In this document: one piece after another, positions 10,028 to 63,240 of the stretch
How the letters are laid out: each line of letters opens with the position of its first letter
How positions within the stretch are numbered: position 1 is the stretch's first letter
NCBI GenBank assembly: GCA_964016885.1
Contig: OZ024743.1
Span: 292,144,001 to 292,208,000 of the forward strand
Source of the DNA: Eledone cirrhosa
Lineage: Eukaryota
DNA length: 64,000 bases
Direction: 5' to 3'
Translations under genes and position numbers: made by a program
Notes under the pieces: model-generated
Seen by the model: only the letters and a program-made list of their open reading frames with translations
The model's database searches: none
What the model was told of the DNA's origin: nothing

Positions 10028-12154
10028 GTTTCGTTGACAAGTATATCAATGTGCCCAGACACGAAGATGTATTGCCTTTGGTATGACAGAATGGTTTTAG
10101 TTCAATGTAGGATAACTAGTGTACTACAGAGCCGTTATAATTTTAGGAATAACCAAAGAGTGCTTAGAAATACAATGATTTATTAGCTAACAGTGTTTCA
10201 TCCATACACTATGGCAGGAATGATCAGAGCTTATAAACAAGAGTATATCAATAGTTGCATGCCCCATCAAGCTGCGTTTCCAGAAAAAGGTTAAAGGACC
10301 AGCAAGGGGTCCCGAGGCCAGCGCTATATAGAAACAGACACAATACATGACGCACATAAAATGACATAAAAAATTACATTAAAAATGACATCAAAAATGT
10401 ATCACATAAATCGTGAAATAGATGATAAGGAGGTTGTGAGAGGGTAGCAAGGAATGAGCGAAGGTGTTACTCAGCATGATCAAATACAATATAAAAAACA
10501 ATAAAAAAAAATATATATATAATATAGCAAAGCATAGATACATCAAAGGACAAGTAGTGCAAATACAGGGTGTACAGGCAGATTAAGAGAGATTGCAAGC
10601 ATGAGTCTGTGAGAATAATAGTTGGTTAGCGGTGGTGCAGCTTTACATGTATGATTGTCCATAGGAAGGATGGTGTACTCCAGTTATATCGCCTTGTAAC
10701 AGGTCGATTTTCTGTATCATATCCGTACCTACGAACCGCATCAAATGGTTCCAGTTCCGAGCGTTAGGCGAGATAATACTATCTTTCCAAAACATGTACC
10801 CAGAGGAACACCGAAAAACTAAAATAAAATAAAGTACGATGAATTGAAGAAAGGTAGGGTATATGTACAGCGGGCACACCAGTGAGGACATTGAAAATAC
10901 GACAGGTCCGCAATAACTGGCATCCCCGAAAGTCCTCCCGTTCGGTCACTCAACCCAACGTCCCAAGTGAAATTCACTGTATGGCCGAGTCGGCATCGAA
11001 CCAAAGAGTCATACCGTATACAATTATACCACAGTAAATGTAAATCGTGATGGCTATCCCGTCACATAGAGAGAAAGTGTATATAGAAAACTCCGCTTCC
11101 AGAATTACCTATGGCAGAGTGAAGGAAAAGCAGACATTGTTACAATAATAAGCGGGCTTATTAGAATGAATGCAAATTTCTGTAGAATATATAGAAAACT
11201 CACGGCTAAAACTGTCAATGTTATTTATATGTCCGCCACGTGGTTTTCGTATAGATTACTGAATCCGGACGTTGTAATCTATTCACAGTTGGGTGTGTCC
11301 CCTCCTGGGTCGGCCGGAGGTCAATATCTACTGTCGCACATTGCCTTGAGCAACATGAGGACTTTGGGGGTGGCAGTTATTGAGGACCTGTGGTATTTTC
11401 AATGTCCTCACTGGTGTGCCCGCTGTACATATACCCTACCTTTCTTCAATTCATCGTACTTTATTTTATTTTAGTTTTTAGGTGTTCCTCTGTGTACATG
11501 TTTTGGAAAGATAGTATTATCTCGCCTAACGCTCGGAACTGGAACCAATTGATGTGGTTCGTAGGTACGGATATGATACGGAGAATCGACCTGTTACAAG
11601 GCGATATAACTGGAGTGCACCATCCTTCCTATGGACAATCATACATGTAAAGCTGCACCACCGCTAACCAACTATTATTCTCACAGACTCATGTCTGCAA
11701 GCTCTCTTAATCTGCCTGTACACCCTGTATTTGCACTGCTTGTCCTTTGATGTATCTACGCTTTGCATTTTTTTTGTTTTTTTTTGTTTTTTATTGTTTT
11801 TTTTTATTGTTTTTGATCATGCAGGGTAACACCTTCACTCATTCCTTGCTACCCTCTCACAACCTCCGTATCATCTATTTCACGATTTATGTGATAAATA
11901 TTTCAGGTAATTTTTAAGGTAATTTTTTATGTCATTTGATGACATATTGTGTCTTTTTCTATATAGCGCTGGCCTCGGGACCCCCTGCTGGTCCTTTAAC
12001 CTTGTTCTGGTGACGCAGCTTGATATGGCATGCAACTATTGATATACTCTTGTTTATAGGCTCTGATGATTCCTGCCATAGGGTATGGATGAAACACTGT
12101 TAGCTAATAAAACAATGTATTTCTAAGCACTCTTTGATCATTCCTAAAATTATA
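10028..12154. mobile_element. fold-back element: ~800-bp inverted arms (10136-10937 / 11357-12154), 419-bp spacer, ~110-bp extra tail on left
   Basis: Arms are reverse complements (mirrored ORFs 10643-10891 and 11390-11650). HHR near the outer end of each arm. TA-rich flanks. Confidence 0.85.
12052..12113 (+). ncRNA. type I hammerhead ribozyme
   Basis: ggct-CTGATGA-ttcctgccatagggtatggat-GAAAC-act-GTT-agct. Stem I extends (gtttat/ataaaac). Mirrored near 10180-10235. Confidence 0.7.
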
Positions 12155-12304
12155 TATATAAATAGATAAATCTACACGGGTGTGTATGATTGTGTATAGA
12201 AGATTATATTAACAAAAGGAATTCCAACTATGTCTGATTTCCTCCTTTTATTTACAGTCCTTTAAAATTATAATGATATAATGAAATAGTATGGTAGAAT
12301 ATTA

Positions 12305-12505
12305 AATGTTAAGTGTTAATTGAACAAGTACGTTCATGCTTTCGCAATCTTCAGGTTCAAATTCAGTGGTGACAGTCAAGTTTGCAATTTTCCACTGTAA
12401 TGAGATGGGTAAATGTTAAGTGTTAATTGAACAAGTACTTTCTTGCTTTCGTAATCTTCAGGTTCATATTCAGTGGTGACAGTCAACTGTAATGAGATGG
12501 GTAAA
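12305..12505 (-). repeat. 107-bp tandem repeat, each unit carrying a minimal hammerhead (12320-12360, 12427-12466)
   Basis: Minus strand reads ttgaac-CTGAAGA-ttgc-GAAAG-catgaacgta-CTT-gttcaa, and a near-identical second copy. Confidence 0.7.
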
Positions 12506-12561
12506 TTATGTGCCTTATATACAGTAAAAAGGGGCTACAGAATGCTAAGTTTGACTGTCAC

Positions 12562-12956
12562 CTTTATGTTAGCAATATTAAGTTCTTTAATATATATATA
12601 TATTAAAATACAAATATTAATAAAATAGATGTTCTTTTGATCAATTAAATTGTATTATACGTATTTCAGAGGTACAACAGTACGTCCTCATCGGATAAAA
12701 TATAATGATACATGACAAACCCTGAGATGTTAAATGGTTAAGTTTTAATCAAGATAGTGATTACCTTGATTAAATCTTAACCATTTAACATCTCGGGGTA
12801 TGTCATGTATCATTATATTTTGTCTGATGAGGGCGTACTGTTGTACCTCTGAAATATGTATAATAAAATTTAATTGATCAAAAGAACATCTATTTTATTA
12901 ATATTTGTATTTTAATATATATATATATTAAAGAACTTAATATTGCTAACATAAAG
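12562..12956. mobile_element. 395-bp palindromic (fold-back) HHR element
   Basis: Arms are reverse complements around a ~10-nt loop near 12760. Right-arm HHR at 12817-12869: attttgt-CTGATGA-gggcgtactgttgtacctct-GAAAT-atgt-ATA-ataaaat. Confidence 0.85.
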
Positions 12957-13620
12957 TTATTGGACCATTTTACATAACCAATAATGCACCTTACTATATA
13001 TATATATATATATATATATATATATATATATATATATATATATATATATATAAATAAATATATATGTATAATATATATATATAATATATATACACACATA
13101 TATATATATATATATATTGGAAAATGTGAAATACTTGGTTCAATTAGGTATATTTAAAAAAAGGAAAAGAATGACTTCACTTGTTCTAAAATATTTAAGT
13201 TAATTGTATGATATTATAATTTAACAATTTGGTTTTGTAGATCTAGTAAGTTCTTTGTTAAATTTGGTGGGGAGATTTTTAAAGATTCCTGGAGAACTTT
13301 CTCGCATTCGTCGGTGTCGATTGTCAAACTGATCTCAGATTGTGTCGTGATATGTGACTCTCTATAAATAAGAAATGTGGGTGTGTCAGGCGGAGGGGTT
13401 GTTAATGCGTGTCGGAGTGAAGTAGTGTTGACGAAGATTTAAAAGAATTAAAGCATATACATATATATATATACATACAGAAAATAGTGAATGGTAACAG
13501 CACGATAATTGATTATAAGTGGATTTGGGCGGTGTTGGGGTGTTTAAGGAGTGTTTTAGAAAGGGGTTGTAAAAGTGCCCTCCTGTTTGTTCCATTTCAA
13601 TAAGTGACCTTTGATGAATA

Positions 13621-61838: not shown

Positions 61839-62350
61839 TATTGTTATACTTTGGGAGGGTCATGTTGCCAATAAGAAACACACGCACCAGTTACTTTCAC
61901 TTCAATTTATTATAAATTAAATTTATAAATTTAGGAATTTATAAATTTCCGGTTGGTTGGTTAGTCCACAATCAGACGATTGTTCATATATTGTCAAATT
62001 CTTTCGTCACACATTCTGTGACCTCTTCAGTGACTGGGGATTCATTCTTTTCTTTGTTTTTGTGCCTCTCCTTTGTTCTGTCCTATGCCATCTTGTTTTT
62101 CGTAGATGGCGTAGGACAGAACAAAGGAGAGGCACAAAAACAAAGAAAATAATCCCCAGTCACTGAAGAGGTCACAGAATGTGTGACGAAAGAACTTTGA
62201 CAATATATGAACAATCGTCTGGAACCAACCAACCAACCGGAAATTTATAAATTCCTAAATTTATAAATTTAATTTATAATAAACTGAAGTGAAAGCATTT
62301 GGTGCGTCTGTTTCTTATTGGCAACATGACCGTCCCAAAGTATAACAATA
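61839..62350. mobile_element. ~510-bp palindromic HHR element with left tail (61781-61838)
   Basis: Arms mirror around ~62098. HHR at 62159-62201: gtca-CTGAAGA-g-gtcac-agaatgt-gtgac-GAAAG-aa-CTT-tgac. The outer end resembles 38611-38660. Confidence 0.85.
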
Positions 62351-62392
62351 TATATATATATATATATATATATATATATATATATATATATA

Positions 62393-62585
62393 CAGATTAG
62401 AGCAAACATCACGAGCGCTCTATCTCAAAATTATTTTTGAAAAGCATTAGAAATGCTCAACCGGTAAAATCTTGAAAATAAAACAGAATACCAACCAATA
62501 CTTATTACTAATTTATACTTATTCCTAATTAAACTATGTTTCACTCGGAAAAATTTGTCAGCATTTTCTTTTCCTTTTTACTAAT
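62393..62585 (+). mobile_element. 3' fragment of the 16.7-17.9 kb family
   Basis: Matches 17710-17910 (TCTATCTCAAAATTATTTTTGAAAAGCATT...TTTGTCAGCATTTTCT). (TA)n on both sides. Confidence 0.75.
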
Positions 62586-62611
62586 ATATATATATATATA
62601 TATATATATAT

Positions 62612-63240
62612 AAATGTATCCGAGTTTTTCGAATTCCATTCATTTGCAATTATGCTAACAAGCCTCAATTGTATACCCATGTCAGTAGAATGAACACTTC
62701 ATTCTTGCTCTTGTGTTGGCATGCGAACAGAACTGCAGACACTAATGTTTTTGGGTATCACCCTTATCAGTACAGCTCACTGTTCACCTGCCAAACAGTG
62801 AAAATATGTGCTATTTTCAAAAATACACAGTGACATATCGGCCTAATTTGTATATTAGCAGACTGGCTGATCAGTCAGATCTGCATTTTAACAGATCCAC
62901 TGATCAGCCAGATTTGCATATCAGCTACTGGCCAGTCAGTTTCCTGTATACAGAGCGATAAATGACCGGCTTTGCCAAATTCAAATAAAAGAGAAAATTT
63001 CGCTCTACAAGGCTGAATACAATAAATGTAATCTGAGTTTTTCGAATATTAATAACATTCGATTCATTTGCAATTATGCAAACAAGCCTCAATTTTATAG
63101 CCATGTCAGTAGAATGAACACTTTATTTTTGCTCTTGTGTTGGCATGAGAACAGAACTGCAGGTGAACAGTGAGCTGTACTGATGAAGCGTGATACCCAG
63201 AAACATTAGTGTCTGCAGTTCTGTTCGCATGCCAACACAC
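62612..63240 (-). mobile_element. retrozyme-like unit with terminal redundancy and inverted HHR arm
   Basis: Direct repeats at 62612-62739 and 63023-63162. 63159-63238 is the reverse complement of 62713-62791. HHR at 63172-63221: gagctgta-CTGATGA-agcgtgataccca-GAAAC-attagt-GTC-tgcagttc. Confidence 0.78.

Follow-up and report, generated by a model that had tools for sequence, protein, structure and literature searches.

The 64,000-nucleotide (nt) stretch analysed here (G000:C4:292144001-292208000 of the 3.0-Gb Eledone cirrhosa assembly; hereafter the window) carries a series of fold-back units in which an inverted 3' end stands head to head with a forward one. Judged by the motifs of their open reading frames (ORFs), these units are 5'-truncated insertions of at least seven families of Penelope-like elements (PLEs), four of Hydra type, two Neptune/Nematis-like and one for which no ORF was found. 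Sampling across the genome shows that the two ends of a unit nearly always come as one of each kind, a long end carrying a tail and a short end that stops before it. The probable explanation, in our opinion, is that the PLE endonuclease nicks both strands of a (TA)n target and that the two strands prime reverse transcription at two different internal sites of the RNA, both of them fixed, giving one long and one short end.

The window (GC content 36%) consists mostly of transposon remains, and (TA)n tracts are abundant in it. By self-comparison of the window, the fold-back units were sorted into families A, B, C, D, E, F, G, H and J, with reference units at 23513 (A), 12562 (B), 10028 (C), 31546 and 33457 (D), 46955 (E), 56102 (F), 61782 (G), 16731 (H) and 62712 (J). 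We then sampled 30 loci per family, taken from the best-scoring matches (for E, the first ones on C1), together with 100 further stretches. Copies of each typed family end at either of two sites, 39–109 nt apart. The 438 typed ends comprise 224 long and 214 short ones, and 403 of them abut (TA)n, compared with 13% of random positions, several of the others being tandem read-throughs; the (TA)n flanks described in an initial annotation of the window are thereby borne out. In C, D, E, F, G and H, the pseudo-long terminal repeat (pLTR) is partly tandem upstream of the ORF. Copies of these families that read through from the long site to the ATG locate both sites within the pLTR, a short way ahead of the ATG, and have TA-alternating letters at them. 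Wherever the continuation of a site is known (13 sites), 1–7 such letters are present, at 11 of the sites at least 3, the two sites of E being weaker (by eye), and it is with these letters that a target primer could pair. Because tandem copies read through both sites into the ORF, priming appears to be internal, at two sites, and not at an RNA 3' end as the initial annotation had supposed.

Among 179 unique outward-facing pairs, 133 were long/short, 8 long/long and 1 short/short, and 37 had one untyped end. Long/short pairs therefore account for 133 of 142 typed pairs, where about 71 would be expected (50% by the marginals; p ~1e-29). The counts were 121 long/short, 4 long/long and 1 short/short when both ends had to be TA-joined, and 130, 7 and 1 when the window loci were excluded; by group, the rule was followed in 95 of 102 pairs in A, C, D, E and F and in 38 of 40 in G and H. 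Four of the eight long/long pairs have a long end outside TA, and three of these are clear tandem read-throughs. In 21 of the 133 long/short pairs, the long arm consists of the tail only. Inner ends could be resolved in 102 pairs, 78 of them asymmetric and 24 symmetric (31 pairs run past the reference), the deeper arm being the long one in 24 pairs and the short one in 33. An inverted partner was in view in 85 of 173 sampled insertions outside the window, a lower bound which agrees with the earlier statement that inversion is common. Solo long and solo short ends both occur, each joined to (TA)n.

Within the window, self-comparison recovered inverted arms at every place listed by the initial annotation, with 82–99% arm identity. 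The one-sided tail, put at 35–110 nt there, measured 39–109 nt depending on the family, and two of the original starts, 23597 and 61839, need correction since they omit tails that begin at 23513 and 61782. The units are listed below, with "core" denoting the hammerhead ribozyme core.

10028..12154, family C fold-back: arms 10136-10937 and 11357-12154 (92% identity); the left end is long (109-nt tail) and the right one short; core at 12063 (+), that of the left arm being damaged; non-coding spacer of 419 nt.
12562..12956, family B palindrome: arms 95%; both ends short, without tail, each arm extending 25 nt beyond a short TA tract into inverted flank; core at 12824 (+).
16731..17914, family H fold-back: arms 16765-17293 and 17386-17914 (99%); the left end is long (39-nt tail) and the right one short; hammerhead core absent.
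23513..23946, family A fold-back without cargo: arms within 23593-23946 (93%); the left end is long (86-nt tail) and the right one short; cores at 23697 (-) and 23841 (+).
25880..26057, old and diverged E-like mini fold-back: arms within 25890-25984 (82%); 76–82% identity to family E; right end untyped.
30400..31145 (+), 3' end of family E with one arm only: of the short type; core at 31085.
31546..33229 (+), family D unit 1 (D1): arms 31598-31914 and 32946-33261 (94%); inverted long-end arm 31546-31914, C-terminal endonuclease remnant 31916-32236, then 3' untranslated region (UTR) and short end; core variant CAGAAGA.
33457..35219 (-), family D unit 2 (D2): arms 33443-33825 and 34851-35233 (96%); mirrors D1 with the same inversion junction; both ends long.
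46955..54830 (+), family E unit: arms 46955-47215 and 54507-54767 (99%); inverted short-end arm, endonuclease remnant from 47215, then 3' UTR and long end (69-nt tail); cores at 47021 (-) and 54701 (+).
50167..53406 (+), non-LTR retrotransposon ORF nested in the E unit and separate from the PLE: 1079 amino acids (aa); AP endonuclease, reverse transcriptase (RT) and PHD.
55822..56058, A-like unit, absent from the initial annotation: a short-end arm (-) is fused to a long arm made of tail alone (+, 56021-56058); core at 55926 (-).
56102..60349 (+), family F unit: arms 56102-57140 and 59233-60271 (95%); inverted short-end arm up to 57140, then RT and GIY-YIG, frameshifted, at 57061-58824, and a long end with a 78-nt tail; hammerhead core absent.
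61782..62351, family G fold-back without cargo: arms within 61838-62351 (90%); the left end is long (58-nt tail) and the right one short; cores at 62030 (-) and 62163 (+).
62712..63239, family J fold-back: 81-nt arms 62712-62791 and 63159-63239 (96%); core at 63180 (+), damaged on the left; ends untyped.

Eight of these units (C, H, A, D1, E, the A-like unit at 55822, F and G) pair a long with a short end. The remaining fold-backs are D2 (long/long), B (short/short with inverted flank) and the two with untyped ends. Together, D1 and D2 (31546-35220) form a 3.7-kb palindrome around a (TA)n centre, with cargos 97% alike, and a genome search found their inversion junction exactly twice, both times in this window. 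The shared D1/D2 junction and the inverted flank of B point to copying at the DNA level at a later time, or to a fold-back transcript that was copied in a second round. Re-transposition of whole fold-back units, which was tested directly for this one junction, is unsupported, and the junctions of the short units differ in detail. The initial annotation had ordered the contents of the units as a cargo series. Because the "GIY-YIG only" cargo is just the C-terminal part of the domain, left by 5' truncation, we read this as a truncation series instead; variable 5' truncation, an inverted 5' copy and an optional tail are all present across the sampled copies.

The assignment to PLE families is based on ORFs, most of them read from longer genomic copies (RT and YIG motifs of C, D, F, G and H). 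Family E has an intact-looking ORF of 713 aa (locus L261), with which the ORFs of C, D and F align at 38–63%. The motifs RWR and DKT, a CxCX5C linker (CNCxxxxxC), a late CxxC (CxLC) and CxH are present in all four families, and CCHH is absent by eye. The Hydra clade, which targets (TA)n and bears hammerheads, is described by an RWK-type motif, DKT, the CxCX5C linker and a late CxxC/CxH (PMC8557442; statements on published work refer throughout to the openly accessible parts of the papers cited), and by motifs and alignment C, D, E and F belong to Hydra-type PLEs. Pfam gave no match on the D, E and F fragments of the window, and their RT/GIY-YIG identity is taken from the same motifs and alignment. 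Family H has DKG, a CX4CxxC linker and a CCHH-type nuclease (CxxC..YIG..H..H), and G, known from partial ORFs, is similar to it; by motifs both are Neptune/Nematis-like, a label that covers either of these two clades, for which DKG, a CX2-5CxxC linker and a CCHH endonuclease are the marks. An alternative view of family H as a DNA transposon was rejected on its linked PLE ORF (DKG RT, CCHH nuclease). No ORF was found for A in 6 extended loci, nor any for B or J. Two other PLEs lie in the window: a decayed one at 1965-5710 (-), with RT, CX4CxxC linker, GIY-YIG and a 3' end 78% like family H, and one at 35240-38460 (+) with an asparagine-rich N-terminus, RT, GIY-YIG and a core at 38388, of which L264 holds an open copy of 969 aa.

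Arms and junctions bear on how the two copies arose. In D, E, F, G and H, the two arms of an insertion resemble each other more than they do arms from other insertions, and they have minority variants in common (permutation p <=0.001; 9–13 pairs each), with a divergence in E of 0.6% within versus 2.2% between insertions. The 52 resolvable junctions include 29 that are flush or overlapping and 23 with short inserts. Microhomology of at least 3 nt is found at 9 of the 29, versus 5.9% by chance (p 3e-5), and this junction pattern is the signature of end joining. The sites themselves are followed by a recurrent motif: RCTC...GAGY lies within 12 nt after the short site in 126 of 142 arms of A (14/17), C (8/13), D (34/38), E (36/37) and F (34/37), and it recurs after the long site in a read-through copy of C, one of D and one of F. 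How PLEs form inverted ends and tails was left open by PMC8557442, and PMC11167929 gave a partial answer; the range of models is narrowed by the pairing rule, the tail-only arms and the common source of the two arms.

In the model we propose, one nicked end would pair by 1–7 nt with the UA-alternating motif at the long site and the other would do so at the short site, 39–109 nt upstream of the long one. In Hydra-type families, the enzyme, which is probably dimeric, would be placed by an RCUC...GAGY stem lying directly 3' of each site. Both cDNAs would stop independently and then be joined head to head by end joining, so that the extent of each would determine the "cargo"; hammerhead cleavage would be dispensable. 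We predict that most of the resulting units are dead products of single events and that they do not form a replicating family of miniature inverted-repeat transposable elements (MITEs). Priming from both cut strands followed by head-to-head joining, which the initial annotation had put forward, is thus the best model given the pairing rule, the tail-only arms and the junction microhomology. Inversion can do without the self-complementary (TA)n target which that annotation invoked, as the same layout accompanies target-site duplications (TSDs) of 9–10 bp in Adineta (PMC3846280). More tentatively, double priming may be obligately asymmetric, with a dimer that grips two copies of one RNA stem (RCUC...GAGY, Hydra clade) and passes a nicked (TA)n end to either site by way of a few UA base pairs, the same transcript being copied twice. 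In that case the inverted pLTR and the one-sided tail of PLEs would be two faces of a single step, and thousands of genomic copies would map its start sites to the base.

Several observations weigh against this model. All of its steps are read from genomic footprints, and young copies are over-represented since the anchors of the sample were best-scoring matches. Nine pairs break the long/short rule, as do D2 and B in the window, and about half of the sampled insertions showed no partner within 1.5–10 kb. The junctions are near-symmetric in 21 of 52 cases, as fold-back would give. Family A shows no concordance between arms (p 0.16–0.32, 6 pairs), C offers 3 pairs, too few to judge, and later conversion between arms would also yield shared variants. 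RCTC...GAGY is absent after the short site in G (0/26) and H (0/22), the long-site hairpin of E has a different stem, and the hairpins are not unusually stable (z -1.7 to +1.0); because the folding energies are ordinary, the case for a cis-acting stem is one of recurrence. Finally, in the accessible part of its report, the in vitro study of a PLE protein saw no difference in start site between top and bottom strands and no homology between the start site and the cut DNA, and does not show one-of-each pairing of sites across strands (PMC11167929).

The main rival is trimming of the tail by the nuclease: both arms would start at the long site, or one would be copied from the other, and the endonuclease would remove one tail at resolution (PMC8557442). 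Trimming explains the pairing count equally well and yields one tail per insertion directly; the short sites are AT-rich, matching the preference of the nuclease, and the D. virilis nuclease needs the tail for recognition, as cited in PMC11167929. However, RT starts in vitro at both boundaries of the tail (PMC11167929), the same stem motif follows both sites in C, D and F, and solo short and solo long ends both exist at (TA)n, and we regard trimming as unlikely. Self-priming, in which one strand folds and is copied back to make the inverted arm (PMC3846280), would account for the source variants common to both arms and, besides the near-symmetric junctions, for the clustering of inner ends and the palindromes at some junctions. 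Against it stand the 21 tail-only long arms beside short arms, because a cDNA primed at the short site cannot template the tail; most resolved pairs are asymmetric (78/102), either arm may be the deeper one, and there is no reason for the copy to stop exactly at the other fixed site. We therefore consider self-priming quite unlikely.

The two other explanations are much less probable than these. Fold-back chimeras of assembly or library would be a concern where palindromes lie beside long (TA)n, which assemble poorly, and no public read or contig spans a whole window unit. But arms differ by 1–10% and by a family-specific tail, and raw restriction-site-associated DNA (RAD) reads from two other samples join the inverted C tail directly to the forward arm, at 10067-11960 and 10139-11981, with 1–2 start places each. 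We hold an artefact to be very improbable. As for MITEs or foldback DNA transposons of a DDE family targeting (TA)n, the long inverted arms, fixed outer ends and non-coding short units are what such elements would show, yet the ends are unequal by a tail, the inner junctions vary, half of the copies are single-armed, and the same ends lie 3' of RT and GIY-YIG ORFs in C, D, E, F, G and H. A DDE origin, which the initial annotation had named among the findings that would overturn its reading, is extremely improbable in view of the unequal ends, variable junctions and PLE ORF partners. The resemblance matters for annotation, because short units look like MITEs and microRNA hairpins; among the Rfam matches listed, microRNA look-alikes were only sub-threshold.

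Hammerheads are frequent in these families, although not universal. A descriptor scan of the window, compared with 30 shuffles of it, gave 4 full hammerheads against a shuffled mean of 0.2, and 17 bare cores that point outward on arms. Rfam gave no hammerhead match on the window at gathering score and none among the 150 of 266 matches listed at E<=10, and minimum-free-energy folds of the hammerhead motifs did not recover the expected fold, with energies that were not significant. Across sampled genomic copies, 34/36 arms of A, 18/18 of C (one as CAGATGA), 37/37 of E and 35/38 of G retain the core; the core of D is the variant CAGAAGA in 34/37 arms, and in F (0/25) and H (0/14) none was found over the 600 nt nearest the short end. 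The E motif has 1422 exact genomic matches by pattern search; among the first 100, neighbours within 10 kb were outward-facing in 21 cases, inward-facing in 1 and on the same strand in 18, of which 11 belong to one tandem array. The outward orientation is not a matter of chance; a hammerhead on both arms, as stated in the initial annotation, is not general, F and H being without a core and D having a variant. Inner ends of short arms cluster 45–72 nt before the short site in D, E and F, near the core. Those of H cluster 197–201 nt before it, a position that the choice of query may bias. Ending of short arms at the hammerhead cleavage site was rejected, as the inner ends of F and H cluster although these families have no core, and a transcript start or RT stall is a more likely cause than hammerhead cleavage.

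In L1 twin priming, the second target strand primes internally on the RNA and produces a 5' inversion joined by microhomology. Tail-only arms look the same as its products. Unlike in twin priming, both sites are fixed here, and there is usually an overlap of tens to thousands of bases between the arms, which requires strand displacement or else, from the same source, a second RNA or pLTR.

Published PLEs offer parallels too. The layout itself, in which a 5' copy is inverted, the tail is on one side, the target is (TA)n and both strands have the hammerhead, is already in print (PMC8557442, PMC3846280); our sampling adds the pairing rule. Hydra-clade PLEs share with our Hydra-type families the C-terminal GIY-YIG, RW[K/R], DKT, the CxCX5C linker, CxxC/CxH near the end, an ORF of ~713 aa, the (TA)n target and a 3' hammerhead of the form "ctgatgat...tgaa", and differ in having tails of 30–40 nt (69–109 nt here) and in the absence of the core in F and its CAGAAGA variant in D (Craig et al., 2021; PMC8557442). 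The supplement of the same study describes Penelope-13_HM, a Hydra element in (TA)n whose 5' copy is inverted and whose hammerhead occurs on both strands, and lists a cephalopod Hydra family; its accessible text says that the tail is "often only at one end" and gives no pairing count. Endonuclease-containing (EN+) Penelope elements likewise have a head-to-head inverted pLTR, a tail on one of the two and microhomology at the 5' junction (Arkhipova et al., 2013; PMC3846280). They differ in their TSDs of 8–10 bp, which are unreadable inside (TA)n here, and in the antisense self-priming invoked for them, against which our tail-only arms argue. The Anolis Poseidon protein, a predicted dimer, cuts both strands in vitro and extends them from two internal starts that bound the tail, with no requirement for the hammerhead to cleave (Frangieh et al., 2024; PMC11167929). 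Both systems have an AT-rich target, and under our model they would also share the use of both strands, the two internal RT starts and the dispensable hammerhead; the Poseidon starts, however, lie inside the ORF in an AC-rich loop, and ours at TA-alternating letters ahead of the ATG. Neither strict pairing nor tail-only arms nor same-source arms were found in the limited openly readable literature, mostly titles and the beginnings of abstracts.

Non-LTR retrozymes are, like our short units, non-coding and PLE-derived; they have a type I hammerhead, of which A, C, E and G show the core, and they differ in forming head-to-tail monomers, where we find head-to-head units with variable junctions (bioRxiv 10.64898/2026.07.22.740005). 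The fold-backs are not made of head-to-tail monomers each with a hammerhead, and a tandem E array is a separate occurrence. At G000:C1:83679782-83699012 (L266, L251), twelve head-to-tail E units with a spacing of ~1.08 kb lie beside an ORF of 819 aa, and every typed unit ends at the long site and (TA)n, which makes the array satellite- or retrozyme-like.

Other repeats of the window touch on the same features. Another hammerhead-bearing repeat occurs at 286-1024 and 5713-6444 as two inward-facing copies (cores at ~740, +, and 5987, -), each with a terminal direct repeat of 45–165 nt; they are probably separate insertions. Two tandem units of ~110 nt at 12300-12500, each with a CTGAAGA..GAAA core on the minus strand (12354 and 12461), have very high depth in public contigs. 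Small palindromes of other families lie at 18056-18233, 63822-63953 and 16020-16631, some with hammerhead-like letters (core at 16173, -). The window also contains a Helitron remnant at 19751-22515 (+; Helitron_like_N and PIF1 matches) and two sets of non-LTR retrotransposon ORFs with RVT_1 matches at 39506-41994 and 42354-46003 (+).

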